Of a DNA stretch of 32,000 nucleotides, positions 12,829 to 29,700 are shown piece after piece. Numbering within the stretch: position 1 is the stretch's first letter; each line of letters begins with the position of its first letter. The position numbers and the translations under genes were made by a program. The stretch comes from Phytohabitans aurantiacus (GTDB lineage: Bacteria; Actinomycetota; Actinomycetes; Mycobacteriales; Micromonosporaceae): the NCBI RefSeq assembly GCF_027923225.1, contig NZ_BSDI01000004.1, positions 186,348 to 218,347 on the forward strand, given 5' to 3'. Below the pieces are notes generated by a model that had not been told where the DNA came from, did no database searches, and saw nothing but the letters and a program-made list of their open reading frames with translations.

Positions 12829-14043
12829 GTGTTCTACTTCTTTGTCAGTTATGCGCGGGGAAACGAAGACGACCTTGTTCGTAAGTTCTGCGCCGACCTG
12901 AGTATCGAGGTGCGCGTTCTCGCCGGCCTCCCTCGCGACGCCGAGGTCGGGTTCATCGACGCCGAGATGAGCCCCGGCACACGGTGGTCACGGCGGCTGG
13001 TCGACGCTCTCTCGACGTGCCGATCCTTCATCGCCCTGATGTCACCCCGCTACTTCTTGAGCCAGCACTGCGGCCAGGAATGGCAGATCTTCGCCGAACG
13101 ATCGTTGCGGTACGAGCAAGCAACGGGAACTGATCCCTCGTTGCTGAAGCCGCTCTTCTGGGTGCCGGTTCCGCGCGGCAAGATGCACCCAGCGGCGCTT
13201 CGCATACAGTTCGCCGATCAAGAGGACGACACCTGCCTGCGGCAGATGATGCGGCTAAAACGCCACGAAGACGCGTACAAGGAATTTCTCTTCAATCTGG
13301 CGAGCCAGATCGTCAACGCAGCCGATCAACATGACATTCCCAACGGCGTCACCTATTCCGATCTCGAGTCCGTGCCGAGCGTCTTCCACCATACGCAGGC
13401 GGTCATCAACGGGGTCCCCGCCAACGAACTGATCGACGCGACGACCGTCCACTTCGTCGTGGCGGCCCCTACACGCAACGAGGCCATGGCGATTCGCGCG
13501 GAATCCACCACCTACGGCGACCGGCGGCGCGACTGGGCGCCCTACCACCCTTCGTGGCCCGATCCACTGAGCGACTACGCGATCAGCATCGCCGCGAGCC
13601 GGAACTTCCTCACGCGCGTGGCGGACCTGGAGGAACTGGGCGAGCGCGCGGCGATCGCCAGTCAGCAGAACCACATCGTCGTGCTACTGGTCGACGCGTG
13701 GATCACCCGCCTGCTCGGCCCACTTGGTCTGCTCACTGCGTACGGGGGCCGTCCCGGAGCACCACGGAACCCCACGACGGTGGTGCTGGGGCCTGCCTCG
13801 GACGGTGACGAGGAGACCCGCGACCAGTGGCCAGCGCTGTCAGAGACCTGGACGGCGACCGCCGGCGGTCTGGCACCGGCCAACGACCTGTCCCGCTGGG
13901 GGATCTCCACGTACCACGACTTCGCCCGCGACCTACCGGCGGCGCTCGAAGTAGCCATGAACCGGGTCTTCGCTAGCGGCAACGTCCGCCGTCAGCCCCT
14001 GAACACCTTCCACATCGAGCGGCCCACGCTCGACCCACCTTGA
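12829..14043 (+). CDS. fxsC: TIR-like protein FxsC (N-terminal TIR-like domain + FxsC C-terminal domain) of the FxSxx-COOH system
   Basis: From the GTG at 12829 (GGAGG RBS 4 nt upstream): VFYFFVSYARGNEDDLVRKFCADLSIEVRVLAG...FIDAEMSPGTRWSRRLVDALSTCRSFIALMSPRYFLSQHCGQEWQIF. This shows the TIR hallmarks FFxSYA and SxxYxxSxxCxxE. The remaining ~270 aa (..HFVVAAPTR.E.......YG....DW.PY......PL.DYA..IA......T.V..L.......A...N.IVVLLVD.W) match what I recall of the FxsC C-terminal family. The track ORF start (TTG 12682) adds 49 unlikely residues. Confidence 0.8.
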   Translation: MFYFFVSYARGNEDDLVRKFCADLSIEVRVLAGLPRDAEVGFIDAEMSPGTRWSRRLVDALSTCRSFIALMSPRYFLSQHCGQEWQIFAERSLRYEQATGTDPSLLKPLFWVPVPRGKMHPAALRIQFADQEDDTCLRQMMRLKRHEDAYKEFLFNLASQIVNAADQHDIPNGVTYSDLESVPSVFHHTQAVINGVPANELIDATTVHFVVAAPTRNEAMAIRAESTTYGDRRRDWAPYHPSWPDPLSDYAISIAASRNFLTRVADLEELGERAAIASQQNHIVVLLVDAWITRLLGPLGLLTAYGGRPGAPRNPTTVVLGPASDGDEETRDQWPALSETWTATAGGLAPANDLSRWGISTYHDFARDLPAALEVAMNRVFASGNVRRQPLNTFHIERPTLDPP

Positions 14044-14081: not shown

Positions 14082-17000
14082 GTGACCGCACGCGCAACCG
14101 CCTCGCCAGCCGACTCCGCACCGGCCGGCGGCACCATCATCACCTTTTACTCGTACAAGGGTGGCACCGGGCGCACCATGGCCATGGCCAACGTCGCGTG
14201 GATTCTCGCCAGCAACGGCCTGCGCGTGCTCATTGTCGACTGGGACCTGGAGTCGCCTGGCCTTCACAAGTACTTCCACCCCTTCCTCACTGACAAAGAC
14301 CTGCGCGCCTCCGCCGGTGTCATCGACATGATCCGCGGTCACGCGGAGGCGATGATGCGGCCGATACACGACACCGAGACCACGCAGTGGTTGGAGACCC
14401 ACGCCGACGTGCTGTCCTACGTCCTCCCCGTGGAATGGTCCTTCCGGGACAAGGGATTCATCGAGCTGCTGCCGGCCGGCCAACAGGACAGTTCCTATAC
14501 CGAGACGGTGCGGACGTTCGACTGGACGGCCTTCTATGAACGCCTGGCCGGAAACGCCTTTCTGGAGGCTTTGGCCCGCAACATGCGCGCCAACTACGAC
14601 TACATCCTCATCGACAGCCGCACCGGAGTGAGCGACGCCGCGGGCATCTGCACCGTCCTACTTCCGGACTCTGTCGTGGATTGCTTCACCATGAACGCGC
14701 AGAGCATCGACGGCGCGGTCGCTATCGCTCACTCCATCGTCCGTCAGCGGGTCGAGCGACCGGTGCGGATACTGCCGGTGCCCATGCGCGTCGAGGATGC
14801 CGAACAGGTCAAGTTGGACGCCGGTCGCGATCACGCTCGGCAGAACTTCGCGCCCTTCCTGGGACGCGACCCGGAGGAGGTCAACCGGTACTGGGGTGAC
14901 ATCGAGATCCCCTACAAGTCCTTCTATGCCTACGAGGAGATACTCGCTCCGTTCGGCGACCGGTCACACCAGGAAGGATCGCTCCTTGCCGCGTACGAAC
15001 GGCTGACCCGGATCATCACCAGGAGCCAGGTGCAGCAGGTCGACGCGATCGAAGAGCGGGTACGCCGCCGGTGGCTGGCTGCGTTCGAACGCCGCCGCAC
15101 CGCCGGCGCGCTGGACATCTTCATCAGTTACGCGGCCGTCGACCGAATGTGGGCGGAATGGATCGCCGGGGAGGCGAACGACGCCGGCCTCCGAGCGAGT
15201 ATGCGGGAGATCGACTCCCAGCCGTTCCCCGAGCCGGGCAACGATCCGCCGAGCTTCCTGAGCAACACCAGCCGCGCGATCGTGCTGCTCAGCGAGGATT
15301 ACATCGCGTCGGTGAAGTCGGCCACGACGTGGAAGACCCTCGCGGCTCGCGAGCCCGTGGGCGGTCGCCCGTTCATCGTTCCGCTCCGTCTGGACAACGT
15401 GCGCCTGGAGGCGCCGTTCGACGAGCACATACCCATCGACCTCAGCGGACTGCACGAGCAGCGAGCCATCGACGTCGTACGCGAGGCGCTCCAGCAGCCC
15501 GTATACCCGCGATCCGCGACGCCGACCGAACCAGACGCACCGCGACGCCGCTTCCCTGCGACAGAGCCCCCACTGTGGAGCGTTCCCCAGCGCAACGGCA
15601 CGTTCACGGGCCGGCGACGTGCGTTGGAGGCGCTGCGCAACCGGATGGCTGCGTCTGGCTCGATGGCGAATCCTCAGGCGCTCCACGGCCTTGGCGGCGT
15701 CGGAAAGACCCAGATCGCCCTCGAATACGCGCACCGCTTCAAGGCGGACTACGACATCGTCTGGTGGGTCTCGGCTCAGCAGACGAGCCTCGTGCGCGCC
15801 TCGCTGTCGAACCTCGCGGATGCGCTCGGTCGACGCGCGGGCGAGAGCGTGACGGAACGGATCCGGTCCGCGCTAGAGGCGCTCCGGCAAGGTGTCCCGT
15901 ATCGACGCTGGCTGATCATCTTCGACAACGCGGACGATCCCGACGAGCTTCGCGAGTACGTGCCTCAGGGGCATGGCCACGTCCTGGTCACCACCCGGGA
16001 CAACGCCTGGTCACGCGTGGCGCAGATGGTGGACATCGGCGTGTTCGGACGCGAGGAGAGCGTGGCTCTCCTCCAGCGCCGGATTCCCAATCTTCCCACC
16101 GCCGACGCGGAGACGGTCGCGGAGCGGCTGGGCGACCTGCCACTCGCCATCGAGCAGGCTGGTGCCTGGCTTGCAGCGACAGCGATGCCGGTGTCCCACT
16201 ACCTCGAACTGCTCGAAACGCAACCCCTCCGGATGTTGGAGGAGGACCTACCGTCCGACTACCAGCAGAGCGCGGCCCAGCCATGGCTCGTCTCGCTCGA
16301 CAGCCTGCGCCAGCGCAGTCCCGCCGCCGCCAAGTTGCTGGAGGTGTGCGCGTTCTTCGCTTCCGAACCAATCCCAATCTCACTGCTCTACAGTGACCGC
16401 TTCATCAGCATGCTTCTCCCGTTCGACCCCTCGTTACGCGAGCGAATGCTGATGGCCAAGGCGATCAGAGAGATCAGCCGGTACGCGCTCGCACGCGTCG
16501 ACACGGGTAGACCAGCTGTTGGATCACAGCGCCGGGCGAGCGACCGGAGTGACGAGGGTGGGCAGAGTATCCAACTGCACCGTCTCATGCAGGCCGTCAT
16601 CCGCGCGCGACTCAGTCCCGACGAGCGTGACGAGAACCGCAAGCACGTCCATGAGATCCTGGCAGCCGCCAATCCGGACGGCCCCGACGAGCCTGAGAAC
16701 TGGCCAACCTACGCCGAGCTGTGGCCACACCTGCTGCCGTCCAAGACGCTCGACTCGGACCTGCCGGACGTCCGGCAACTCGTCTACGACATGTGTCGCT
16801 ACATGTGGAAGAGCTACGACTACCCGACCAGCCAATTCCTTGCCGAGCAGGCCGTCGAGAAGTGGGAGGAGGCATTCGGCGCCGATGACCCGCTCACCCT
16901 CATGATGCGCTTCAACCTGGCCACCGCCCTTCGCCTCCAGGCCAACTACACGCCTGCCTACGAGATCGACCGGGACATCTATGCCCGGCTCGGTCGTGTC

Positions 17001-18089
17001 GTCGGCGAGGACCATCCATACACGCTGATGGCGGGCGGCAACCTTGCCGCCGACCTACGCGCCCGCGGTGAGTTGCACGAGGCGCACAGGCTCGATGAGG
17101 CGATCGAGGCGCGGTGGCGGGAGACCTTCGGCGACGACTATCCACGCACCCTGATCGCGGGACACAACCTCGCGGTCTCACTCCGCCTCATCGGCAACCT
17201 GCAGGACGCGCTGCGGCTTCAGGAACGGATCCTGCGACTCCGCCGCGCGGTGCACGGCGATCAGCATCCGTACACGCTGTACTCGTCCAGCAACTACGGA
17301 CGGGATCTGCGCGACACGGGCGATCTGCGGGAGTCGCACCGCGTACTTGAGACTGCGTTGGAACGGCACCGGCGTGTGCTCGGCGAGGATCATCCGGAGA
17401 CCCTCCGGACGGCGAAGAACCTCGCGGTGACGCTACGCAAGCTGGGCGAGTTCGAGCGGGCGCACGCACTGAGCGCCGAAACCCTGGAAGGGTCGCAAAG
17501 GCTGTTCGGTCCTCACCACCCCGACACCCTGGCGTGCGGCATGAACCTCGCCTGCGACGAAGCGGCTCTCGGCCACGACCGGAACGCACGACGACGCGCC
17601 ACACCCATCGTCGACCTCTCCCGCCAGACCGGCGGCGAAAACCACTTTGCCACCTTGGCCTACGCCAACAACCTGGCGATCTTCATGCGTAAGACCGGTG
17701 ACGCCGCCGGCGCACACAGCATCACGACCGATGTGATCAACCGTTTTATGGCGACGGTCGGCCACGAACATCCCTACACACTCGCTGCCCTGCTCAACAA
17801 CGGCAACGACGACTACGACCTGGGCAACTATGCCGAGGCCCGGTCGTCCGACGAACGCGCCTACGCGGAGTTCACGCGGGTCCTGGGGCCCGAGCATCCG
17901 GACACGCTGGCGGCCGCCAGCAATCTCGTGGCCAGCCGCAGGGCCGATGGCGATCCGGGCGCGGCACGCGAACTGTTGGCCGGGATACTGAACACCTACG
18001 ATCGCGTGCTAGGTGCGCACCACCCCAATACCATCGCCGCGCGGGAAGGTCGCCGGCTCAGCTGCGATCTGGAACCACCACCTACCTGA
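14082..18089 (+). CDS. fxsD: FxsD-type multidomain STAND protein: variant ParA/MinD-like ATPase (KGGTGRT) + TIR-like domain + NB-ARC NTPase + C-terminal TPR array
   Basis: 1335 aa. Residues 17-330 read IITFYSYKGGTGRTMAMANVAWILASNGLRVLIVDWDLESPGL...ILIDSRTG.SD, a ParA/MinD fold with Arg in place of the P-loop Lys. Residues 344-460 read LDIFISYAAVDRMWAEWIAGE...AIVLLSEDYIAS (TIR-like). Residues 505-700 read FTGRR..L..L......GLGGVGKTQIALEYAHR...YDIVWWV......LIIFDNADD....VLVTTRD......GDLPLAIEQAGAWL (NB-ARC Walker A/B, RNBS, GLPL). Residues ~900-1320 hold about ten TPR_10/12-type repeats (..GEDHPYTL....NLA..LR..G....A..L). Confidence 0.85.
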   Translation: MTARATASPADSAPAGGTIITFYSYKGGTGRTMAMANVAWILASNGLRVLIVDWDLESPGLHKYFHPFLTDKDLRASAGVIDMIRGHAEAMMRPIHDTETTQWLETHADVLSYVLPVEWSFRDKGFIELLPAGQQDSSYTETVRTFDWTAFYERLAGNAFLEALARNMRANYDYILIDSRTGVSDAAGICTVLLPDSVVDCFTMNAQSIDGAVAIAHSIVRQRVERPVRILPVPMRVEDAEQVKLDAGRDHARQNFAPFLGRDPEEVNRYWGDIEIPYKSFYAYEEILAPFGDRSHQEGSLLAAYERLTRIITRSQVQQVDAIEERVRRRWLAAFERRRTAGALDIFISYAAVDRMWAEWIAGEANDAGLRASMREIDSQPFPEPGNDPPSFLSNTSRAIVLLSEDYIASVKSATTWKTLAAREPVGGRPFIVPLRLDNVRLEAPFDEHIPIDLSGLHEQRAIDVVREALQQPVYPRSATPTEPDAPRRRFPATEPPLWSVPQRNGTFTGRRRALEALRNRMAASGSMANPQALHGLGGVGKTQIALEYAHRFKADYDIVWWVSAQQTSLVRASLSNLADALGRRAGESVTERIRSALEALRQGVPYRRWLIIFDNADDPDELREYVPQGHGHVLVTTRDNAWSRVAQMVDIGVFGREESVALLQRRIPNLPTADAETVAERLGDLPLAIEQAGAWLAATAMPVSHYLELLETQPLRMLEEDLPSDYQQSAAQPWLVSLDSLRQRSPAAAKLLEVCAFFASEPIPISLLYSDRFISMLLPFDPSLRERMLMAKAIREISRYALARVDTGRPAVGSQRRASDRSDEGGQSIQLHRLMQAVIRARLSPDERDENRKHVHEILAAANPDGPDEPENWPTYAELWPHLLPSKTLDSDLPDVRQLVYDMCRYMWKSYDYPTSQFLAEQAVEKWEEAFGADDPLTLMMRFNLATALRLQANYTPAYEIDRDIYARLGRVVGEDHPYTLMAGGNLAADLRARGELHEAHRLDEAIEARWRETFGDDYPRTLIAGHNLAVSLRLIGNLQDALRLQERILRLRRAVHGDQHPYTLYSSSNYGRDLRDTGDLRESHRVLETALERHRRVLGEDHPETLRTAKNLAVTLRKLGEFERAHALSAETLEGSQRLFGPHHPDTLACGMNLACDEAALGHDRNARRRATPIVDLSRQTGGENHFATLAYANNLAIFMRKTGDAAGAHSITTDVINRFMATVGHEHPYTLAALLNNGNDDYDLGNYAEARSSDERAYAEFTRVLGPEHPDTLAAASNLVASRRADGDPGAARELLAGILNTYDRVLGAHHPNTIAAREGRRLSCDLEPPPT

Positions 18090-18093
18090 CCCG

Positions 18094-19848
18094 TCAAACC
18101 GCCAGACACTCCACTGGCTCCAGCCAGGTCGCAAGCTCCAAAGGGTCGACCGTCCCGTCGCCCGTGCCGCTGAGTTCGCGATGGACCGCCATGCAGAGCT
18201 CCGGAAAGCGCAGTCGGGGGGCGTCGGGATCGCGTTGGCAGGCGAGAGCCAGCCCGATCCACGCGTCCACGCGATCGGTCGCCACGATCTCGGCCGCGTA
18301 CGCCCGACGCGCCGCGGGCAGATCACCCGCCGCCAACGCAATGTCGCCAACCGTCGCGTTCTCCCCCGCGGACAGCGCGGCGAACCGCGCGGGCTCGACG
18401 ATCCGCAACCGAGCCAGATCCAGGCGGGCGCTGCGCGTCAGCATCCGCCCGGCGCGCACCGTTTCCGTCGGCACCGGATCGCGAGGGCAGGGCATGCTCG
18501 CCTGCCAGGCAGACGCCAACCGCCGCACGGCGGCCGTCTCCGGCAGCCGGTTCCGTAGCTGCCAACCCACCCTGTGGTCGTCGGCGGCCTCCGCCGCCAT
18601 CGCCACAGTCACGGCATCGGCTGCCTCCTGCTGCCACGGCGATTGCGCGGCCCGCATCCCAGCAAGGAATTCCAGACCCAAGGACGTGAAGCGCCCCGAC
18701 GCTTCGAGGATGTCGAGCGTCCGCCACACGCGATCCCGCCAGCGTACGAACTCGACCTGGGCGAGCTGGCCGGGCCCTTCGGTCAGCAACCGCCGCTGCA
18801 CCCGCCAGAAATCCACGACACCGTGGAAGGCATACGCGCCTTGCAACAAAGCGCCGAGCGGACGGGGATCGTCGCGCCAGGGCGCATAGTGCCGTGGCCG
18901 GTCGTCCCTCTCGTACAGCGGCTGTATGTCGAGCAGCCCGCCGAGCTTCGCGTGCTGGAACTCGTGCAACAAGCCCAAGGCGAGCGCACGGCCGTTGACG
19001 GGCGGCGTCAGCGACACCGCCCCGAACGCCTCCATGCTCGTGACGTTCATGCCGTGATCGGGCCGCTCGCTGTGCAGCGGGACGATCGTCGTCAGGCCCG
19101 CGGCGATCGCCTCGGCGTACGAGCGGTGGTGCTCCACCAGAATGGGCCACGCGTCGTCCAAGAGCCGCTGCCAATGGCGGATGTCATCGTCGCTCAGCCG
19201 TCCCTCGGCGCCTAGTTGGTGGCAGTCGCGAAACGGATCGACATCGTCCACGGACAGCTCGATGCGCAGATCGGTGGCGGCACAGCGCAGGCGACGGACT
19301 GCCTGCCAGCCGCCCGCACTGTGCTCGATATGTTCCGGTACGACCACGGTCCCCAGCTGAGTGCGCCCGCCGATGTGCTCCAGACTGGCGGTGTGCGCAT
19401 CACCCAGGATCGCACGCCCGAGCCCCGGCAGGGTGACGCTGCCGCCGTACACCTTGACCTCGAACTTCGCGTCGACACCCGCCGTCATGGCGGCCACGAG
19501 CGCGACGCCGGCCATGTATTCGAGGCGTGCTTCCAGGCCGCCTTGGGCCTCGGATCCACCGCGGACCGCGCGCAGTGTGGCCGTCAACCACGCGCCAACA
19601 TGCGGCTGGAGCAGCAGTAGGCGTACGGCGGCCGGGGACCGGCGCTCGGCCGCCACCAGCACGTCGAAGTACTCGGCGATTCTGGCCGACCGCGCAGCGG
19701 CCACCAGCTGGCCGAGCATCAGTTGTCGCCTGCTCACCTGCGCGGCGCGGAGTCTGCCCACGATCCGGCCATCGCCGAGGCCGCTGGCAAGGGCCGCGAA
19801 GTCGGCGCTATCGAGGCGATGCGTCGTTTCCGGCGTCAGGAGTTCCAT
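18094..19848 (-). CDS. HExxH-motif protein of the Fxs system (putative peptide-modifying metalloenzyme; this family has been assigned as 2-oxoglutarate-dependent peptide beta-hydroxylases)
   Basis: The motif LGLLHEFQHAKLGGLLD has its HEFQH codons at 18952-18966. The N-terminus MELLTPETTHRLDSADFAALASGLGDGRIVGRLRAAQVSRRQLML looks like the conserved start of HEXXH-domain partners of FxsB. I chose the ATG at 19848. The track start at 19998 would overlap fxsB by 190 nt and adds a low-complexity, non-homologous stretch. Confidence 0.8.
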   Translation of the reverse strand: MELLTPETTHRLDSADFAALASGLGDGRIVGRLRAAQVSRRQLMLGQLVAAARSARIAEYFDVLVAAERRSPAAVRLLLLQPHVGAWLTATLRAVRGGSEAQGGLEARLEYMAGVALVAAMTAGVDAKFEVKVYGGSVTLPGLGRAILGDAHTASLEHIGGRTQLGTVVVPEHIEHSAGGWQAVRRLRCAATDLRIELSVDDVDPFRDCHQLGAEGRLSDDDIRHWQRLLDDAWPILVEHHRSYAEAIAAGLTTIVPLHSERPDHGMNVTSMEAFGAVSLTPPVNGRALALGLLHEFQHAKLGGLLDIQPLYERDDRPRHYAPWRDDPRPLGALLQGAYAFHGVVDFWRVQRRLLTEGPGQLAQVEFVRWRDRVWRTLDILEASGRFTSLGLEFLAGMRAAQSPWQQEAADAVTVAMAAEAADDHRVGWQLRNRLPETAAVRRLASAWQASMPCPRDPVPTETVRAGRMLTRSARLDLARLRIVEPARFAALSAGENATVGDIALAAGDLPAARRAYAAEIVATDRVDAWIGLALACQRDPDAPRLRFPELCMAVHRELSGTGDGTVDPLELATWLEPVECLAV

Positions 19849-21031
19849 CTTGGAGTCGTCCTTTGAGTACAGCGGCAAGATCGGCGTGAACGCGAGGAAG
19901 CACGTGACGAATGAGGCGACCAAGGTCAGCGCAGTAGACCGATGGATTACGGAAGCCCGTCTCCGCACGGTACCGGTGCGGATAGTAGCCGCCACCACAT
20001 ATCCGATGCAGCGGACAGGCCAGACAATCGTCGGAAAGTGCGTCTAGGCCGATCTGCCGGTCTTGGATCTCGGGGTGCTCCAGCACCTCGTCAAGGCTGT
20101 GGTCGAAGACGTTCATGCCGGTGTCGACAGCGCCTGGATACGTGGACCGCAGGGTGTCGATCTGCTCGTACGCGCCGTCGACGTCCACGACGACGGTCGC
20201 CACGGGGCTGAGGCCGATCGTCTCGATGCGGCTTGTGCCGCCCAGCGCTAGGCTGATTACTTCTTCGAAGAATCGAACGCGCGTTTCCCGAACTGGCGCG
20301 TCGTACCAACGATCGAAGGCGGCCACCAGCCAGTCGCCGTAGAGCGTGTCCCCCGCCGACCATCGCGGCGGAGGACTCGTCCAGTTCCCGTGCGGCAGCA
20401 GAAAGTCGATGGCGGGCGGATCATACTGGAGCAGACTGTCGAATGTAGATACCGGGTCGTTGTCCAGGTCGATGACGCTGAGGATGCCAGCGAAGTGTTC
20501 CGGACGAAGGCGCAACGAGCGCAGTGCCCGGTCCACCGCATCGAAGGAACTGCGACCGTTGGCGTACCGCCGATGCCGGTCGTTCGCCCGGCGGTCTCCG
20601 TCCAGGCTTACGCCGATGCGGATGCCTGCCTGGCACAAGCGATCGATCACGCGGTCGTCGAGCAGGACGCCGTTGGTCTGGACTGTGATGTCCACAATGG
20701 CCTGTGGTGCGACGGCGGCACGCACCCGGTCGGAAGCGCGCACAAGAGCGTCCACACCGACCATCATGGGCTCACCGCCGTGCAGCACGACCCGAAGCGG
20801 TCGCCCCGTATCGCCGACATGGTCGGCAATCCGTTCGCATACCCGATCTAGCACGCGGTCCGACATGGCCGAATTGACCTGTCGCCAAGCCGTGTCGGCC
20901 AGTTCGTACATGTAGCAGTAGTCGCAAGCCAGGTTGCACCGGGTGTGGAGCTTGAGCACGAACTCACGGAACGGCGTCCGCCGACGGTCGTGGGCTCGGA
21001 CCAGTGGCACAGCTACATGGCCGAGTTCCAA
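19808..21031 (-). CDS. fxsB: FxsB-family radical SAM / SPASM peptide maturase (cyclophane-forming)
   Basis: PFREFVLKLHTRCNLACDYCYMYE carries the CxxxCxxC radical-SAM cluster (codons at 20915-20938), and VVLHGGEPMM follows. The C-terminal SPASM-like Cys cluster reads DDCLACPLHRICGGGYYPHRY....G..NPSVYC. The start is either the TTG at 21031 (19-nt overlap with fxsA) or the GTG at 21010 (2 nt after the fxsA stop). Confidence 0.85.
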   Translation of the reverse strand: MELGHVAVPLVRAHDRRRTPFREFVLKLHTRCNLACDYCYMYELADTAWRQVNSAMSDRVLDRVCERIADHVGDTGRPLRVVLHGGEPMMVGVDALVRASDRVRAAVAPQAIVDITVQTNGVLLDDRVIDRLCQAGIRIGVSLDGDRRANDRHRRYANGRSSFDAVDRALRSLRLRPEHFAGILSVIDLDNDPVSTFDSLLQYDPPAIDFLLPHGNWTSPPPRWSAGDTLYGDWLVAAFDRWYDAPVRETRVRFFEEVISLALGGTSRIETIGLSPVATVVVDVDGAYEQIDTLRSTYPGAVDTGMNVFDHSLDEVLEHPEIQDRQIGLDALSDDCLACPLHRICGGGYYPHRYRAETGFRNPSVYCADLGRLIRHVLPRVHADLAAVLKGRLQDGTPDAGNDASPR

Positions 21032-21183
21032 CCAGCGACCGCGTCCTGCGGCCGGTCAATATCTTCTAGGATCCGGCGCAGGGAATGAGCGACGACTGAA
21101 CCGCCCAGCCTGGATAAGTCAGACAGACTGAGACCACTCAGATCAACCAGCTCAGGCTGGTTGTCATCAACCGTTGCATCCAC
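21013..21183 (-). CDS. fxsA: FxSxx-COOH-family RiPP precursor peptide (56 aa, C-terminus WNSAM), not in the supplied ORF track
   Basis: My translation of the minus strand from the GTG at 21183 gives MDATVDDNQPELVDLSGLSLSDLSRLGGSVVAHSLRRILEDIDRPQDAVAGWNSAM* with a TAG stop at 21015-21013. An in-frame TAA lies 4 codons upstream, so this GTG is the first possible start. An AAGGG RBS lies 6 nt upstream. The ORF sits immediately 5' of fxsB, and the last five residues fit aromatic-x-S-x-x-COOH. Confidence 0.75.
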   Translation of the reverse strand: MDATVDDNQPELVDLSGLSLSDLSRLGGSVVAHSLRRILEDIDRPQDAVAGWNSAM

Positions 21184-21454
21184 CCGGGGCCCTTACTAGT
21201 CGCAAACATTAAATAGTTGTTCGCGCCGGGGCCCGCAGAGGGCCTGCGGTGGCGCCGCTTGACATTAGCACTTCAAGCCGTCGCGCGCGCCATTTTAGCA
21301 CCCGATCGATGACCGCGCCACTGGGCCATTTGCACCAATGCACCCAATCGGCCGCCGAACGGGGAATAGCAGACAGGCGCCATTACAGATCACGGTCGTT
21401 CCGTTGCATACTGCTATCATCACGCCCGCATCGGATGCGACCCGGAGCGTTGCC

Positions 21455-23185
21455 GTGGCCCAGCCGAACGACCCGACCCAGCATCGTCCCGCCATCAACG
21501 CGCTCAGGCTCGGAATCACCGTGACGGCAGTCGTGTCCCTCCTGCTCGGCTATCTGGGACTGGACGCGTTCCTCAGCGGCTCTGATCAATACGGAAATAG
21601 GCCGATCGACCTCCTGTACTACGACGTCCAACTCTTCGTCCTGGGTGCCGACCCGCTCCAGCAACCCGGTCCCTACCCCTTGCTCCTTGAGATAGCTCGC
21701 CTGACAGCACCGCTGGCGACCATCACCGCTCTCGTGGAGGCGGCGCGGCTGCTCTTCGCCACCGAACTGCGAAGACTCCGCGCCCGGCGTGCTCGCGGTC
21801 ACGTCATCGTGTGCGGCGACACCTCGCTGGCCGGAATCCTCTCCCGCCGTCTCCATGCCGCTGGCCGGCGAGTCGTTCACGTACGAGCACAAGCCGAAGC
21901 CGTCCCGCCGAGTCCGTCGTATCCATTGATCGTGGTTGGCGACGCCCGGGACGCGGGCACCCTGACCGCCGCGGGGCTGAGCCGCGCCACCGCCCTGTAC
22001 GCCTGCGCGCACGAAAGCGCGACCAACATCGCCATCGGCCTGGCTGCTGGCCGTGAACGCCGCCTCCAGGGGCCGTCGCTGCCGATCTATACGCATGTGC
22101 CAGACCCGGACCTGTGCCTTACCCTGCAGGCCAGGTATCTCGGACTGCCGAATCCGCCCGGGGCTCGGCTCGACTTTTTCAACGTCGACGATCTGGCGGC
22201 CCGCAAGGTATTTCTGGAAGATCCGCTCGAGCCGGAGGTCAGGCCCCGGCAGTACATCCTGGTGGCTGGAACGACGCCGTTCGGACAAGCGCTCGCTGTG
22301 GAGGCTGCCCGCCATTGGCGACGAAGGCTCGCTCCGGATCCGAGTACCCGCCTCCGCATCGCGATCGTGGCCAGGAACGCCACCGAGACGCTCGCCAATC
22401 TCGCCCACCGCTATCCGTTTCTTCGACTCTCCTGTCGTCTCGACGCATACGACGCCGACCTCGTGGACATCCTGGCCACCGAGCTGGATGAGGCGCCCGA
22501 CCGCGCCTACATCTGTTACGCCAACGAAGAACGCGCCCTGAAAGCGGCACTTACCGCAGACCGGTACTGGCGAGGACGGAAGAACTGTGTCGTAGTGCGA
22601 CTGGACCAGCTCGCGGATTTCTCCGACGACGGTGGACTCGCCAGCCAGCTGCTCGACGACGGCCCTGCGCGGCTGCGGGTGTACGGCGTTCTGCGCGCCG
22701 CCTGCGATCCCGGGATGATCGCCGAAGATCTCGTGGAGCGCTTGGCTCGCGTCATCCACGACCGCTACCTGGTCGCGCGTCGCTCGCACGGCCAAGCCGA
22801 CAACTCCAGCCCGTCGATCGTTTCGTGGGAACGGTTGCCGCCGGAGCTGCGGCAGACCAACCGGGCACAGGCGGAGGACATCGGGCGGAAGTTGAGGGCC
22901 ATCGGTTATGTGCTCGTGCCACGGATGCGTGAGTCAGCAGATGAGGAAAGCATGAACGAGAACGAGATCGAACGGCTGGCGATGATGGAGCACGAACGGT
23001 GGTGCCTCGACCGCTTGGCGGCGGGTTGGCGCTACGGCGAGCGCCGTGATGACATCCGCAAGCTGCATCCGGCGCTTTGCGATTGGAGCAATCTCCCGCC
23101 GGACATCCGGGAGCGCAACCACGACGCCGTGCGAGAGGTACCTCTGATCCTCTCGGACGCCGGCTTCCAGCTGGTTCGGATCTGA
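21455..23185 (+). CDS. Membrane-associated protein with two Rossmann (TrkA-N-like NAD-binding) domains and two C-terminal RyR (ryanodine-receptor-type) domains
   Basis: The hydrophobic N-terminus reads LRLGITVTAVVSLLLGYLGLDAFL. Rossmann beta1-loop motifs are GHVIVCGDTSLAGILSRRLHAAGRRVVHV and QYILVAGTTPFGQALAVEAA. Two RyR repeats occupy ~22724-23182: ERLARVIHDRYLVARR......SIVSWERLPPELRQTNRAQAEDIGRKLRAIGYVL and ERLAMMEHERWCLDRLAAGWRYGERRDDIRKLHPALCDWSNLPPDIRERNHDAVREVPLILSDAGFQL. I prefer the GTG at 21455 (GGAG RBS 7 nt upstream) over the track ATG at 21338. Confidence 0.75.
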   Translation: MAQPNDPTQHRPAINALRLGITVTAVVSLLLGYLGLDAFLSGSDQYGNRPIDLLYYDVQLFVLGADPLQQPGPYPLLLEIARLTAPLATITALVEAARLLFATELRRLRARRARGHVIVCGDTSLAGILSRRLHAAGRRVVHVRAQAEAVPPSPSYPLIVVGDARDAGTLTAAGLSRATALYACAHESATNIAIGLAAGRERRLQGPSLPIYTHVPDPDLCLTLQARYLGLPNPPGARLDFFNVDDLAARKVFLEDPLEPEVRPRQYILVAGTTPFGQALAVEAARHWRRRLAPDPSTRLRIAIVARNATETLANLAHRYPFLRLSCRLDAYDADLVDILATELDEAPDRAYICYANEERALKAALTADRYWRGRKNCVVVRLDQLADFSDDGGLASQLLDDGPARLRVYGVLRAACDPGMIAEDLVERLARVIHDRYLVARRSHGQADNSSPSIVSWERLPPELRQTNRAQAEDIGRKLRAIGYVLVPRMRESADEESMNENEIERLAMMEHERWCLDRLAAGWRYGERRDDIRKLHPALCDWSNLPPDIRERNHDAVREVPLILSDAGFQLVRI

Positions 23186-23194
23186 GGAAAACCC

Positions 23195-23677
23195 ATGGTC
23201 ACGATCGGCGTCACAGGGCACGTCCATCTGAGCGAAGCCTCGGAGCAATTGATCTTCGATGCGGTGCTGGAAGCCACACGTTACTTCGCCTCCGAGAGGC
23301 CACACGGCATCACCTGCCTCGCGCGCGGCGCCGATCAAATCTTCGCCCGCGCAATGGTGGCTCTAGGCGGCACGTTCGAGGTGGTGCTGCCGGCACGCGA
23401 CTATCGCCGGCGCATTATCACGGCCGAGGAACGCCAGAACTTCGATCTGTTGATGGAGCAAGCCAGCAGGGTACGCGTTATGCACGCCCGGCGGTCGGGG
23501 CGGCCCGCGTACGTCGCGGCGAGCAGGTACATGTTGAACCGATCGACAGTGCTGTTCGCCGTCTGGGATGGGCAACCGACCAAAGGCCCGGGAGACACCG
23601 CTCACGTCGTATCGCTGGCGGAGGAGCGCGGCCTGCCGGTGAAGGTGTTGTGGCCGGCTGGGGCCGGCCGCCGGTAA
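23195..23677 (+). CDS. Small SLOG-superfamily (DprA / LOG / YpsA / DUF2493-like Rossmannoid) protein
   Basis: 160 aa: MVTIGVTGHVHLSE...ITCLARGADQIFARAMVALGGTFEVVLPA......SRYMLNRSTVLFAVWDGQPTKGPGDTAHVVSLAEERGLPVKVLWP. It has the SLOG hallmarks: a Gly-rich loop after beta1, GxARGxD, and a late WDG....G.T..V..A...G.PV motif. It starts 9 nt after the RyR gene stop, with a GAGGA RBS 6 nt upstream. Confidence 0.65.
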   Translation: MVTIGVTGHVHLSEASEQLIFDAVLEATRYFASERPHGITCLARGADQIFARAMVALGGTFEVVLPARDYRRRIITAEERQNFDLLMEQASRVRVMHARRSGRPAYVAASRYMLNRSTVLFAVWDGQPTKGPGDTAHVVSLAEERGLPVKVLWPAGAGRR

Positions 23678-23715
23678 ACGGTGAATCGCAGCTGGGTCGG
23701 GATAGCGTTGAGCCC

Positions 23716-25342: not shown

Positions 25343-26362
25343 GTGATTCACCTACCCACCGCAGCACGGGGACCACTCCGGGCACTCGCGCTGCGCCTGG
25401 TCGCCGCCATCGGACTGGTCCTCTTCATCGTCTTCGTGGTCTATCTCGACCGAGACGGATATCGTGACGGCGACGACACGAGCGGTTTGACCCTGCTCGA
25501 CTGCTTCTACTACACGGTGGTGTCGCTGTCGACCACCGGTTACGGCGACATCACGCCAATCACGCCCCAGGCCCGGCTGGTAAACGTCCTCGTGGTCACG
25601 CCGGCACGAGTACTGTTTCTGATCATCCTGGTCGGCACCACACTCGAGGTGCTGACCGAGCAGTACCGGACCAACGCACGCCTCGCGCGGTGGAGAAGGC
25701 ATTTGAAGGACCACGTCATCGTCTGCGGGTACGGGACGAAAGGGCGCAGCGCCGTGGGCGCACTGCGCGAGAGCGGCTTCGACGTCAAGCGCATCGTCGT
25801 GGTCGAGTCGGACCGCCCGTCGGTGCGGCGAGCCGCCGCCGACGGCCTGGTCGCCATCGAGGGATCGGCAACCCAGTCGACCGTGCTGACGGACGCGCAC
25901 ATCAAGGACGCCAAGGCGGTCATTGTCGCGACCGACACCGACGAGGCTTCGGTACTGGTCACCCTGACCGCGCGGCAGCTCACGGCCGGCAAGGTGCGCA
26001 TCATCGCGGCGGCTCGGGAGGCGGAGAACGCACCGCTGCTCAAGCAGAGCGGCGCTCACCAGGTGATCGTCTCGTCGGCGACGGCCGGGCGCCTGCTGGG
26101 CCTCTCGACGTCGGCGCCGCCGCTCATCGACGTCGTCGAAGACCTGCTGACCCCGGGCGCGGGCATGGCGCTCGCGCTGCGCTCGGCGGCCCGCGACGAG
26201 GTGGGGCGCTCGCCGCGCGAGGTGACCGAGCCGGTCATCGCGCTGGTGCGGCTGGGCCGGATCATCTCGCTGGCCATGCCCGAAAGCGCCAAGATCGAGA
26301 CTGGTGACCTGCTGGTCTACATCCGCGACGACCGCCCGAGCCCGGTGACCGCCTCAGCCTGA
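25343..26362 (+). CDS. Two-TM K+ channel with cytoplasmic TrkA-N/TrkA-C (RCK) gating domains
   Basis: The pore and selectivity filter read DCFYYTVVSLSTTGYGDITP, flanked by TM helices LRLVAAIGLVLFIVFVVYL and VLVVTPARVLFLIILVGTTL. RCK-N is HVIVCGYGTKGRSAVGALRESGFDVKRIVVVE, and an RCK-C-like tail follows. I prefer the GTG at 25343 (GAGGA RBS 5 nt upstream). The track ATG at 25298 is the alternative. Confidence 0.8.
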   Translation: MIHLPTAARGPLRALALRLVAAIGLVLFIVFVVYLDRDGYRDGDDTSGLTLLDCFYYTVVSLSTTGYGDITPITPQARLVNVLVVTPARVLFLIILVGTTLEVLTEQYRTNARLARWRRHLKDHVIVCGYGTKGRSAVGALRESGFDVKRIVVVESDRPSVRRAAADGLVAIEGSATQSTVLTDAHIKDAKAVIVATDTDEASVLVTLTARQLTAGKVRIIAAAREAENAPLLKQSGAHQVIVSSATAGRLLGLSTSAPPLIDVVEDLLTPGAGMALALRSAARDEVGRSPREVTEPVIALVRLGRIISLAMPESAKIETGDLLVYIRDDRPSPVTASA

Positions 26363-28300
26363 CCCTCGGCGGCCTCGCCGGGCGCGGATGTAGTCGGCCA
26401 CGACGTATCGGCTGAGGTCTTCCGCGTCGGGGGTGAAGACCCGGCCGCCTGAGCGCTTCGCCACCGCGTCGACGAACCGGCGCAGCGCCTCGTCTTCGCC
26501 GAGCATGAAGAGGTTGAGCGTGGCGCCGTACCGCGTCAGGTGGTCGACCTCCGTGATCGTCGCCTCGACCGTCTCGCGCAGGGGCGGCCAGAAGAAGACC
26601 GCCTCGCCGTCGGCTTCGAGGTGGGCGGTCGGCTCGCCGTCGGTCACCACCAGCACGACCGGCTCGGAGCCGGAGTGCTTGCGCAGGTGCCGGCCGGCCA
26701 GCTTGAGCGCGTGGTGCAGGTTGGTGCCCTGCACGTAGTCGGGCTCGACGGCGGCCAGCTCGGTCGGAGACAGCGGCATCGCGTACCGGCCAAAGCCGAT
26801 GATCTGCAGCGCGTCCTGCGGAAACTTCGTGGCGACCAGATGCGACAGCGCGAGCGCGGTCTGCTTCATGGGCCCCCAGCGGCCATCGGCGGCCATCGAG
26901 AACGACAGGTCGACGCAGAGCGCCACCGCGGCTGACGCCCGACGCTCGGTCTCGACCACCTCGAAGTCGTCGACGGTCAGCTCGACCGGCACCATCTCAC
27001 CGCGACGGCGTACCGCGTTGCCGACCGTTCGCACCACGTCGATCGGCTGCTCGTCGCCGTACGCCCACGCCCGCGACGCGCCGGTGATCTCGCCAGCCGC
27101 CCCCGCGTCGCGCAGGTCGTGCTCGCCGCGCCGCCGGCCGGACAGGTCGGCGAACACGGTACGCAGAGCCGTGGCACCGAGCCGGCGTAGCGCCTTGGGG
27201 CTCAGCGTCAGCCCATCGGCGCCCCGAGTCACCCAGCCCTGCCGGCGCAGCTCCCGCTCCAGCTCCTGGAGCCGGCGCACGTCGGCCGCCGCGTCACGCC
27301 CCAGGACGCGCTCGACCGACTCCACGTCGACGTCGTCGAGGGTGGCGCCCGGATGCTCCTGGCCCAGCTGGTCGAGCAGGTCGTCGAGGTCACCGATCTC
27401 CGCCAGGGCGCCCGCCGCCTCGCCGTACCCGAGCCCCTCCCGGCCGCGGACCTGAGCCCGCCGATCCCATGCCAGGTCGGGCCGGAGCGTCCGGAGGTTC
27501 GCCGTCAGGCGCGCCATCTCTCCGGCGAGGCCGGCGTTGCCGAGCGCCTGCGCCATGAGCCGCGACAGTTCCTCCTGCTGCTGCGGCGACAGGGAACGCA
27601 TCAGGCGCTCGGCGGCAGCCGCCCGGCGGGCGAGCGCGTCGATCAGCTCGTCGACCGTGGCCGGTTTCTCGGGGAAGAAGTCGCCGTGCCGCCGCATGAA
27701 CTCGGCGAACGTGTCGGTGGTGTCCTCGCCCCGGGCGTGCCGGTCGAGCAGGTCGTTGAGGTCGCGGAGCATCTCGGCCATCCGCTGCTGCGCGGCCGGG
27801 TCGCTGAGCCCTTCGCGGAGGCCGGCGAACCGCTGCTCCAGTACCTCGTCGCGGAGCCCGTCGAGGATCTGCTGGTACAGGGCGCGGGCCTCGTCGCTGG
27901 CCCACTCGTAGTCGGACAGCTCCTCGACGGCTCGCGCGGTAGACCGGGGCAGGTTGTCGAGGCGTGCCTCGGCGAACCGCGCGTCGTCGCCCGGGCGGCC
28001 GGACAGCTCGTCGCGCTCGGCGGCGAGCGCCTGGTCGAGCAGCGCCTGGGATCGGGTGACCGCGCCGTCGAGGTTGCCCCGGCGCATCGCCTCTCGCCGC
28101 AGCCGCCGGGCGCGGGCGGCCAGCTCGTCGAGGCCGCGACCGCCGTCGGGGCCGCGCCGGAGCAGGTTGCGCAGCGCGTCGCGCAGGCTGCCGCCGCCGA
28201 GCACCTCGGAGCCGACCCGGTCGACCGCGGCGCGCACGTCGTACGGCGGCGCGAGCGGGTCGGGCCCACCACGCCACGCGCCGTACCGGTACCGGTTCAT
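26354..28300 (-). CDS. von Willebrand factor A (VWA) domain protein, partner of the upstream AAA+ ATPase
   Basis: From the ATG at 28300: MNRYRYGAWRGGPDPLAPPYDVRAAVDRVGSEVL... A long helical Arg/Glu/Leu-rich middle region follows. The C-terminal VWA domain has a MIDAS motif (ALCVDLSFSM...TNLHHAL......VVLVVTDGEPTAH). The ATG overlaps the ATPase stop (ATGA at 28297-28300). The first 377 aa of track ORF 26354..29431 are an out-of-frame artefact. Confidence 0.8.
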   Translation of the reverse strand: MNRYRYGAWRGGPDPLAPPYDVRAAVDRVGSEVLGGGSLRDALRNLLRRGPDGGRGLDELAARARRLRREAMRRGNLDGAVTRSQALLDQALAAERDELSGRPGDDARFAEARLDNLPRSTARAVEELSDYEWASDEARALYQQILDGLRDEVLEQRFAGLREGLSDPAAQQRMAEMLRDLNDLLDRHARGEDTTDTFAEFMRRHGDFFPEKPATVDELIDALARRAAAAERLMRSLSPQQQEELSRLMAQALGNAGLAGEMARLTANLRTLRPDLAWDRRAQVRGREGLGYGEAAGALAEIGDLDDLLDQLGQEHPGATLDDVDVESVERVLGRDAAADVRRLQELERELRRQGWVTRGADGLTLSPKALRRLGATALRTVFADLSGRRRGEHDLRDAGAAGEITGASRAWAYGDEQPIDVVRTVGNAVRRRGEMVPVELTVDDFEVVETERRASAAVALCVDLSFSMAADGRWGPMKQTALALSHLVATKFPQDALQIIGFGRYAMPLSPTELAAVEPDYVQGTNLHHALKLAGRHLRKHSGSEPVVLVVTDGEPTAHLEADGEAVFFWPPLRETVEATITEVDHLTRYGATLNLFMLGEDEALRRFVDAVAKRSGGRVFTPDAEDLSRYVVADYIRARRGRRGSG

Positions 28301-29700
28301 TCCCGACTGCCGTAGAGGGTGCGGCCCTCGTCGGTCATCGCCTTGGAGAGCCGGCGGGTCAGGTGCAGGCCCTCCAGCACGAACTCGATCCCGGCCGCGG
28401 CCTGCCCGGCGTTGGGCGCGTCGTCGAAGCCCAGCCGCTCCAGCACCTTGGCCAGGCCGGGCACGGTGCCCACCTGGCGCAGCAGGTCGGCCGCACCCAC
28501 CAGATCGCCGGTCTCGACGATCGCGCCGTCGGCGACCAGATCGGTGAAGCCCGACAGGTCGAGCCCGCCGAGCCTGGCCCGGAACGTCTCGGCGCTGGCC
28601 GTGCGCAGCAGGTGCGCCAGTACCTCGATCTCGCGGCCCTCTTCGCCGCTCTCGAACTCGACCTTGCCGCGCAGCGTGCTCACCACGGACGAGGTGTCGC
28701 CCACGCGCGCCACCGCCTCGCGCTCGCCGAGCAGGCCCGCGCGGCGCAGCGCGGAGGCGGCCACGGTCTCGGCGCCGGCGATCGCGAACCGTGCCGACAC
28801 CCCGGAGCGGGCGTCGACCGAGGGCGAGTCGCGAACCGCGCGGGCGAACCGCGCCACCACCTCCAGGACGTGCTCGGGCACCTCGGCGACGAGCTGCGCC
28901 TCCTGGCGTACCAGAGCCAGCTCCAGATCGAGTTCGAGCGGGTAGTGAGTGCGGACCTCGGCACCGAACCGGTCCTTCAACGGCGTGATGATCCGGCCGC
29001 GGTTGGTGTAGTCCTCGGGGTTGGCGCTCGCGACGAGCAACAGGTCGAGCGGCAGCCGGAGCTGGTACCCGCGCACCTGGATGTCGCGCTCCTCCAGCAC
29101 GTTGAGCAGCGACACCTGGATGCGCTCGGCGAGGTCGGGCAGCTCGTTGACGGCGAAGATGCCGCGGTTGGTGCGGGGTACGAGTCCGAAGTGGATGGTC
29201 TCCGGGTCGCCGAGGGTGCGGCCCTGTGCCACCCGGATCGGGTCGACGTCGCCGATCAGGTCGCCCACGCTGGTGTCGGGCGTGGCCAGCTTCTCGCCGT
29301 ATCGCATCGAGCGGTGCAGCCAGCTCACCGGCAGCTCGTCGCCTAGCTCCTCGACCAGCCGCCGGGACGCCGGGGTGAGCGGGTGGTACGGGTGCTCGTT
29401 GAGCTCGGAGCCGGCGATCACCGGCGTCCACTCGTCCAGCAGCTCGACCAGTGAGCGGATGACCCGGGTCTTGCCCTGACCGCGCTCGCCGAGCAGGACC
29501 AGGTCGTGGCCGGCGAGCAGGGCCCGCTCGACCTCGGGCAGCACGGTGCCGTCGTATCCGACGATGCCCGGGAACCGGGGCGTGCCGTCGCGCATCCGGG
29601 CCAGCAGGTTTTCGCGCAGCTCCTGCTTGACCGTGCGGTGCTCGTGGCCGCTCGCGCGCAGCTCACCCAGGGTGCGGACCGTGTTTGGCAATGAGGTCAC
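28297..29700 (-). CDS. AAA+ ATPase of the Mg-chelatase ChlI / MoxR-like clade
   Basis: 467 aa with a GTG start at 29700. Walker A is HDLVLLGERGQGKTRVIRSL and Walker B / sensor is RGIFAVNELPDL.ERIQVSLLNVLEERDIQVRGY.LRLPLD.LLVASANPEDYTNRGRIITPLKDRF. This family is commonly annotated as magnesium chelatase-like ATPase and is paired with a VWA protein. Confidence 0.85.
   Translation of the reverse strand: MTSLPNTVRTLGELRASGHEHRTVKQELRENLLARMRDGTPRFPGIVGYDGTVLPEVERALLAGHDLVLLGERGQGKTRVIRSLVELLDEWTPVIAGSELNEHPYHPLTPASRRLVEELGDELPVSWLHRSMRYGEKLATPDTSVGDLIGDVDPIRVAQGRTLGDPETIHFGLVPRTNRGIFAVNELPDLAERIQVSLLNVLEERDIQVRGYQLRLPLDLLLVASANPEDYTNRGRIITPLKDRFGAEVRTHYPLELDLELALVRQEAQLVAEVPEHVLEVVARFARAVRDSPSVDARSGVSARFAIAGAETVAASALRRAGLLGEREAVARVGDTSSVVSTLRGKVEFESGEEGREIEVLAHLLRTASAETFRARLGGLDLSGFTDLVADGAIVETGDLVGAADLLRQVGTVPGLAKVLERLGFDDAPNAGQAAAGIEFVLEGLHLTRRLSKAMTDEGRTLYGSRE

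Follow-up and report, generated by a model that had tools for sequence, protein, structure and literature searches.

FxsT of Phytohabitans aurantiacus carries a conserved arginine P-loop ParA/MinD-fold domain and is encoded next to FxsC

The 32,000-nucleotide stretch of Phytohabitans aurantiacus analyzed here (contig NZ_BSDI01000004.1, positions 186,348 to 218,347; hereafter, the window) encodes on its plus strand, at 14082..18089, a 1335-residue protein that is FxsT, i.e., the signal transduction ATPase with numerous domains (STAND)-type protein, built of NB-ARC and tetratricopeptide repeats (TPRs), from an FxSxx-COOH peptide locus of the stand-alone kind. The first 338 residues of FxsT are a member of the curated family of KGGVGR-motif variant AAA ATPases and have the ParA/MinD fold, with an arginine at the position of the catalytic P-loop lysine. 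This ParA-like module is the best conserved of the five modules of FxsT across 118 full-length orthologues. We favor, with moderate confidence, the explanation that the domain binds nucleotide, forms a ParA-type sandwich dimer and hydrolyzes slowly or not at all, acting as a dimerizing adaptor or switch together with FxsC, its putative partner in the Fxs locus.

The fxsT frame runs uninterrupted for 1335 codons from a GTG start, 7 nucleotides downstream of the ribosome-binding site GAGGAGG, and has a third-position GC of 0.82 in a window whose GC is ~0.64-0.75. Its product is 100% identical to P0121, a protein predicted on a JGI metagenome contig of 71 kb. The NCBIfam model NF040586 matched residues 501-1335 with 1012.7 bits (cut-off 300); the name curated for this model is ‘FxSxx-COOH system tetratricopeptide repeat protein’, and the name FxsD, under which an initial annotation had listed the ORF (open reading frame), could not be confirmed. 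That annotation had been made from the sequence alone and had proposed the module order ParA-like, TIR, NB-ARC, TPR. Pfam and NCBIfam domain calls returned the same order, and the coordinates it gave, those of KGGTGRT and GLGGVGKT among them, along with the TIR match and the ~10 TPRs, proved exact when re-derived.

The N-terminal domain, supported by NF047398, an AlphaFold2 (AF2) model and Foldseek, spans residues 17-338 (14130..15095). Within it lie the deviant Walker A motif KGGTGRT (residues 26-32, 14157..14177, in a YSYKGGTGRT string starting at 14148), the Walker A’/switch I motif VDWDLE (14235..14252) and the Walker B motif ILIDSRTG (residues 175-182, 14604..14627). The domain abuts the TIR domain directly (residues 344-460, 15111..15461; Pfam TIR_2, PF13676, residues 346-457, E 1e-15, 58.8 bits, cut-off 28), so that its C-terminus is not free. 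The NB-ARC STAND NTPase core follows (residues 508-720, 15603..16241; PF00931, residues 515-717, E 8e-11, 42.1 bits, cut-off 23.5) and has all the hallmarks of its family: a score above the cut-off, a Walker A GxxxxGK[ST] (GLGGVGKT, residues 536-543, 15687-15710), a Walker B (LIIFDNADD, 15912-15938) and a GxP motif (GDLPLAIEQ, 16131-16157). The DUF7779 region of the STAND module (residues 742-848, 16305..16625, including LHRLMQ at 16575-16592) scored 25.1 bits with PF25000, slightly under the 27-bit cut-off. The TPR array (16719..18086) matched TPR_10 and TPR_12 at E ~1e-51, and a [DEH][HDY]PxT motif recurring with a 42-residue period over residues 935-1313 gives ~10 repeat units.

Sequence profiles, the AF2 model and Foldseek agreed on the N-terminal ~330 residues, which the initial annotation had taken to be ParA/MinD-like. 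NF047398, the KGGVGR-motif family model, matched residues 18-218 with 144.9 bits (cut-off 90) over its positions 3-188 of 190. The superfamily Pfam models (AAA_31, CbiA, ParA, MipZ and VirC1) covered just the first ~45-85 residues, with AAA_31, CbiA and ParA placed at residues 18-65 (up to 101). A profile built from 42 relatives and searched against PDB sequences matched MinD, ParA and Soj, placing KGGtGRt on KGGTGKT, vvDWDle on AVDGDL and YDYvLiDsrtGl on FDFILIDCPAGL. Alignment to archaeal MinD (1g3q) likewise matched R31 with the GK[ST] lysine, VDWDLE with the Walker A’ DxD and ILIDSRTG with LIDCPAG, the Walker B motif. The AF2 model of residues 1-340 had a mean predicted local distance difference test (pLDDT) of 90.2 and a predicted TM-score (pTM) of 0.91, and in the PDB Foldseek matched it best to MinD, Soj, FlhG, ParA, BcsQ and NifH-type proteins, with a probability of 1.00 and a target-normalized TM-score of up to 0.76 (Helicobacter pylori Soj). 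Because profile and predicted fold are both those of ParA/MinD, the possibility that this region belongs to some other fold falls away. The kinship is nonetheless distant: identity to the solved MinD, Soj and ParA structures is 13-19%, and the domain scored far below the curated equivalog cut-offs for MinD (26.0 vs 212.9 bits) and ParA partition proteins (30.3 vs 180 bits).

Like MinD, Soj and ParA, the domain has the signature lysine (K26), the Walker A’ DxD (D53 and D55) and the Walker B aspartate (D178). Unlike them, it has an arginine, R31, at the catalytic P-loop lysine, is ~80 residues longer owing to helical insertions and is embedded in a multidomain protein. The initial annotation had pointed out this substitution and left room for it to be strain-specific; it turned out to be a property of the whole family. 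Arginine occupied the position in all 117 relatives with an intact N-terminus among the 120 best relatives of the N-terminal domain, as KGG[TAVS]GR[TS], and again in all 117 orthologues with an intact N-terminus among the 120 best full-length relatives. Since it is invariant both in orthologues and in other family members, a strain-specific substitution is no longer an explanation. The signature K26 was lysine in 115 of 117 orthologues, and the NB-ARC P-loop GK[TS] was retained in 113 of the 120 full-length relatives. Among 42 diverse members, K26, G27, G28, G30, R31, D53, W54, D55, D178 and G182 were all invariant, and the KGGVGR domain carries an invariant motif of its own, DWDLE[AS]PGLH.YF.PF. 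With respect to its family, the window protein shows no difference: it matches in NF047398 score, KGGxGR[ST] motif, N-terminal position and frequent TIR fusion, and its threonine at the variable motif position is shared by about half of the relatives.

Averaged per column over the 118 orthologues, conservation was highest in the ParA-like module (0.747); then came NB-ARC (0.714), the winged-helix region (0.712), the TPR array (0.611) and, as the least conserved module, TIR (0.586). The pattern fits a pocket that may still bind nucleotide and a dimer interface that may still be in use, and the highest module conservation together with the invariant catalytic positions is better matched by a nucleotide-binding switch than by a decayed relic. 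A binding switch in place of a hydrolase had been among the ideas of the initial annotation, which also proposed that the arginine might alter nucleotide specificity and that the stacked NTPases might provide two-step assembly control or localize the protein to the nucleoid or membrane. In P-loop NTPases, a lysine-to-arginine change at this position usually abolishes or greatly lowers hydrolysis. By analogy, the arginine of FxsT would be expected to slow or abolish it as well. Within the ParA/MinD superfamily, the mutants ParA(P1) K122Q and ParA(F) K120Q are ATPase-defective, and natural variants lacking the signature and/or the P-loop lysine are known, namely BcsQ (RGGVGTT) and McdA (SGGQGKT) (PMC9178275, Table 1).

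BcsQ, which functions in cellulose secretion and was among the Foldseek matches of the N-terminal domain (6yay_B), is a parallel in that it is a ParA/MinD-fold protein naturally without the catalytic lysine (PMC9178275). Unlike the FxsT domain, it lacks the signature lysine as well and forms a separate protein within a secretion machine, and it shows no specific sequence kinship (25.8 bits vs a cut-off of 157.85). The bcsQ gene is encoded beside a small dedicated partner gene, bcsR.

The family is large. Scanned exhaustively with HMMER, 1.84 billion representatives yielded 3113 clusters at 50% identity (E<=1e-30), in which the KGGVGR domain was almost always N-terminal, in proteins of 270-1975 residues, and at least 592 loci (one genome per species) encode it. 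No relatives were found in a phage collection, and among plasmids there were only 10 records. The domain also matched the PADLOC candidate defense model PDC-M28B with 84 bits; the PDC-M28 candidate system was mentioned in none of the literature searched.

The initial annotation had judged the stacking of a ParA-like ATPase on a STAND NTPase to be unusual, a view that did not hold up. The fusion of an arginine P-loop ParA-like domain with TIR, NB-ARC and TPR modules had been known and curated before this analysis, and FxsT of the window is a regular family member. The architecture is common to at least the 120 best protein clusters (48-70% identity, ~99% coverage; Micromonospora, Actinoplanes, Dactylosporangium, Phytohabitans, Plantactinospora and others), with a Phytohabitans kaempferiae protein (70% identical) as the closest named orthologue. 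The order ParA-like, (TIR), NB-ARC, TPR was found in 72 of the 80 best loci among species-representative genomes, curated NCBIfam models cover it, and it was described in 2020 by Kaur et al. (PMC7159879), who called the ParA-like domain inactive and placed it among ‘cell-division-related effectors’ (section 17). FxsC does not appear in Kaur et al., nor do ParA-like N-terminal domains in a 2026 survey of STAND proteins (PMC13581612). What is newly added here is the FxsC linkage, the ranking of module conservation and the contrast in the TIR glutamates.

We scored the FxsC linkage with local profile hidden Markov models (HMMs) over 87 KGGVGR ORFs in 80 loci, these being the ones closest to the query among the at least 592. 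An FxsC-like ORF lay directly upstream on the same strand of 83 of the 87; a full FxsC-like protein was encoded there in 74 cases, whereas only its TIR-like half was detected in eight and only its C-half in one. Two of the four ORFs without such a neighbor sit at locus edges; of the 85 testable ORFs, 83 have one. In the window, fxsC (12829..14043, plus strand, JGI gene call) ends 38 nucleotides 5’ of the fxsT start, its open frame reaching upstream to 12682, and its product, a TIR-like N-terminal domain plus FxsC_Cterm, scored 135.6 bits with NF040588 and 106.1 bits with TIGR04276. We had considered the C-terminal domain of FxsC alone as the constant partner and withdrew this candidate, given TIR-like N-domain remnants upstream in loci L085 and L086.

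The pair is also kept on other chassis. The KGGVGR domain is carried by NACHT and nSTAND1 proteins as well, and the FxsC-like gene stays with it beside NACHT fusions (L044, L037), beside an nSTAND1-TPR protein in Acidobacteria (L042), in L047, which was assigned to the nSTAND1-TPR type solely on having a length and layout identical to those of L042, and beside a TIR-only fusion partner in Frankia (L083), where the two genes overlap by 4 nucleotides. No FxsB or HExxH gene was seen in the searched flanks of these NACHT, nSTAND1-TPR and TIR-only loci. In two loci, from Blastocatellia (L045) and Thermoanaerobaculia (L056), a single ORF encodes FxsC and the KGGVGR domain as a fusion, and the pair is found on a large alphaproteobacterial plasmid, pRlX4 of Rhizobium beringeri (L088, 2691-6253). 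A large Sinorhizobium plasmid (L087), likewise outside Actinomycetota, also carries an FxsC-like and KGGVGR pair.

FxsC and FxsT both contain TIR-type domains, which differ at the position of the canonical glutamate. In TIR NADases, as known from SARM1 and plant TIRs, the catalytic glutamate lies four residues past a conserved tryptophan (WxxxE). In FxsT, the residue four past W417 (position 421) was A, T, V, S, I or D in 118 orthologues and never glutamate; a single-sequence search of this TIR against PDB sequences gave no match. The N-half of FxsC is a TIR by predicted fold, its best Foldseek matches being SPARTA TIR-APAZ, RUN1 and TRAM, and it carries the motif S-P-x-Y-F-x-S-x-x-C-G-x-E-W, with glutamate in 70 of 76 orthologues; in 404-residue numbering it is Glu84. 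With a glutamate in FxsC and none at W+4 in FxsT, FxsC is the likelier bearer of an enzymatic TIR, should the system have one, and the comparison suggests that the two proteins could form a catalytic and non-catalytic TIR pair.

How these parts might work together can be outlined as follows. The TPR array would sense a cue, possibly the modified FxsA peptide, a linked modified peptide having been suggested as the TPR cue by Kaur et al. (PMC7159879). NB-ARC would then oligomerize and gather the ParA-like domains and the TIR domains, which are probably non-catalytic. The ParA-like domain, which occupies the place where STAND proteins carry their output domains, would be locked by its arginine in the nucleotide-bound state, with slow or no hydrolysis, and form sandwich dimers that offer a docking or adaptor surface for FxsC. 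FxsC, through its TIR-like domain with the catalytic glutamate, would finally be recruited or released as the enzymatic output. We infer FxsC to be the partner from the position of its gene, directly upstream in almost every relative, and from its occasional fusion to the domain.

Several points weigh against this explanation. Nucleotide binding, dimerization and the FxsC interaction are read solely from conservation, synteny and gene fusions, and a search of the literature on KGGVGR and FxSxx-COOH proteins found nothing relevant beyond Kaur et al. 2020 and no biochemical study of any family member. One KGGVGR-TIR gene, that of Streptomyces anandii (L084), lacks an upstream FxsC-like neighbor on its own strand, and the linkage may be weaker in distant members, since the surveyed loci are those closest to the query. 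The TIR of FxsT has an acidic residue (D/E) at W+7 in 87 of the 118 orthologues, and its catalytic incompetence is for that reason not proven. The C-half of FxsC, which has a Rossmann-like alpha/beta fold, gave no confident Foldseek match. Finally, the neighbors of the locus in the window are mostly metabolic genes and do not form a defense island.

The same conserved pocket could instead be that of a fully active ATPase in which arginine does the work of lysine, perhaps with help from FxsC, and which cycles like ParA/MinD and thereby gives the STAND complex a timed, reversible assembly or positions it on the nucleoid or membrane. The invariance of K26, D53/D55 and D178 would suit such an enzyme, as would the rank of the domain as the most conserved module. 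Typically, ParA/MinD-type ATPases have a conserved partner encoded beside them, such as ParB, MinE or BcsR, and the neighboring FxsC gene would match this. We nevertheless regard this alternative as unlikely, for the usual effect of a lysine-to-arginine exchange is loss or reduction of hydrolysis, the ParA lysine-to-glutamine mutants are defective, Kaur et al. (PMC7159879) predicted the domain to be inactive, and the directly following TIR leaves it no free C-terminus.

The genomic setting raises a further alternative, in which FxsT would be an accessory of RiPP biosynthesis (RiPPs being peptides that are made by the ribosome and modified after translation), i.e., a scaffold or regulator that serves the FxsA cyclophane peptide in its maturation, export or sensing, and not an immunity or cell-death switch. 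FxsA, FxsB and the HExxH protein are all co-located with it in the window, FxsB and HExxH genes lie within 10 kb in ~58 of the 72 loci of the same architecture, NCBIfam names FxsT an FxSxx-COOH system component, and the window is not an obvious defense island. On the other hand, the FxsC-KGGVGR pair also occurs without FxsB and HExxH and on other STAND chassis, the combination of TIR, STAND and TPR is a hallmark of sensors resembling nucleotide-binding leucine-rich repeat receptors (NLRs), and the N-terminal domain matches PDC-M28B. On balance, this role for FxsT seems improbable to us.

A more far-reaching proposal, which we offer as distinctly speculative, is that FxsC and the KGGVGR domain form a portable two-part signaling module, mounted on several unrelated chassis, namely NB-ARC, NACHT, nSTAND1, TIR-only, cyclic nucleotide-binding (cNMP-binding) and SLATT, in which the arginine pocket would bind a nucleotide other than ATP, e.g., an ADP-ribose-derived product of the FxsC TIR, that drives sandwich dimerization. 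If true, signals made by TIRs would have a new type of sensor, and the ParA fold would have a new use.

Least credible to us is an inactive decoy effector that would, on activation, disturb the ParA/MinD-type division or segregation machinery of the host: the ‘cell-division-related effector’ class of Kaur et al. (PMC7159879, section 17), the N-terminal position, which is the usual effector slot of STAND proteins, and the missing catalytic lysine would all agree with it, but heterodimers with housekeeping ParA/MinD seem unlikely because identity to them is so low (13-19%), the family-specific DWDLE[AS]PGLH.YF.PF motif and the near-constant FxsC neighbor (83/87) point to a dedicated partner of its own, and the KGGVGR domain is also fused to non-toxic modules, e.g., cNMP-binding domains.

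Returning to the favored explanation, of an arginine-locked adaptor or switch paired with FxsC, its interest lies in the size of the family, which comprises ~3100 clusters at 50% identity, is strongly conserved and is located, in filamentous bacteria, at the output end of NLR-like proteins of several kinds. This conservation argues against an ‘inactive relic’ and singles out the pair of N-terminal domain and FxsC. Were the pairing true, it would explain signaling by a whole class of bacterial STAND proteins and tie it to a cyclophane peptide pathway. FxsT resembles TIR-NLR and Avs-type STAND sensors in having one or more N-terminal output domains, a central STAND NTPase, a C-terminal repeat sensor and a TIR; it differs from them in the extra ParA-like domain before the TIR and in the lack of the canonical glutamate in the latter. 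To our knowledge, no phage-defense phenotype is known for FxsT.

The remainder of the Fxs locus lies on the minus strand and converges on the plus-strand fxsC-fxsT pair in the order fxsA-fxsB-HExxH. The FxsA precursor peptide (21013..21192), located with a scan for C-terminal motifs, scored 35.2 bits with TIGR04268 (cut-off 28) and ends in ...AGWNSAM, with tryptophan instead of the phenylalanine of the name-giving FxSxx-COOH motif. FxsB, the cyclophane-forming radical SAM/SPASM maturase (19808..20959, JGI gene call), scored 450.3 bits with TIGR04269 (cut-off 370). A homologue of the alpha-ketoglutarate (aKG)-HExxH-type peptide beta-hydroxylases (18094..19848, JGI gene call) scored 160.7 bits with TIGR04267.2; its open frame (18094-19998) has no Pfam matches, and by the JGI calls it overlaps the 3’ end of fxsB at 19808-19848. 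Within 3.2 kb of the fxsT ORF, the models for FxsA, FxsB, HExxH and FxsC all exceeded their cut-offs. The locus is like the FxSxx system of Kaur et al. (PMC7159879) in its four modules, its FxSxx peptide, its radical SAM/SPASM and HExxH neighbors and its actinobacterial host, and unlike it in that the FxsA of the window ends in WNSAM and not in FxSxx. The HExxH protein is a peptidase according to these authors, and the NCBIfam family name is now aKG-dependent beta-hydroxylase. A cluster for ADP-ribosylated triceptides (PMC12912966) was considered as a parallel and set aside as a loose analogy only, its enzyme being an ADP-ribosyltransferase (ART) and not a TIR or FxsT-like protein.

No VMAP/MoxR/vWA triad was seen adjoining the Fxs locus in the window, and the locus is therefore treated as the stand-alone type. 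At 26354-29700 on the minus strand, a vWA protein with Rv0959/Mb0984-type domains adjoins an AAA_5/Mg-chelatase-like ATPase. We rejected the VMAP-ternary-associated form with this Rv0959-like vWA/AAA pair in view, as it lies ~8 kb off with unrelated genes between.

Next to fxsA, a protein with an RyR domain (PF02026) fused to TrkA_N is encoded at 21338-23185 on the plus strand, followed by a gene of ~160 residues; the JGI calls for the two are about 21456-23186 and 23196-23678. RyR recurs near Fxs or KGGVGR loci in unrelated genomes (L002, 10895-11633; L086, 7541-7831; L003, L004, L007, L009 and L016), and the RyR protein may be a further accessory gene of Fxs/KGGVGR systems.

Other surveyed loci showed variations on the same theme. 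Three Actinoplanes loci (L009, L011 and L014) contain two complete FxsC-FxsT pairs no more than 20 kb apart, some with one common FxsB; these paired sets are local duplications of the sensor pair. In Microbispora sp. CA-102843 (L002, 4811-9005), an NB-ARC/TPR protein without the N-terminal domains is followed by a 131-residue radical SAM fragment and then by a stand-alone 334-residue KGGVGR protein, an arrangement resembling an Fxs locus that has split or decayed. Micromonospora sp. NPDC005710 (L029, 7439-13372) has a stop-to-stop ORF of 1978 residues that joins NACHT, the KGGVGR ParA-like domain, TIR, an NB-ARC-like STAND core and TPRs, such that three NTPase-fold modules share one polypeptide and the ParA-like domain is internal. 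The KGGVGR domain is internal in the 1975-residue protein P0255 too (residues 851-1182), which may resemble the Micromonospora ORF.

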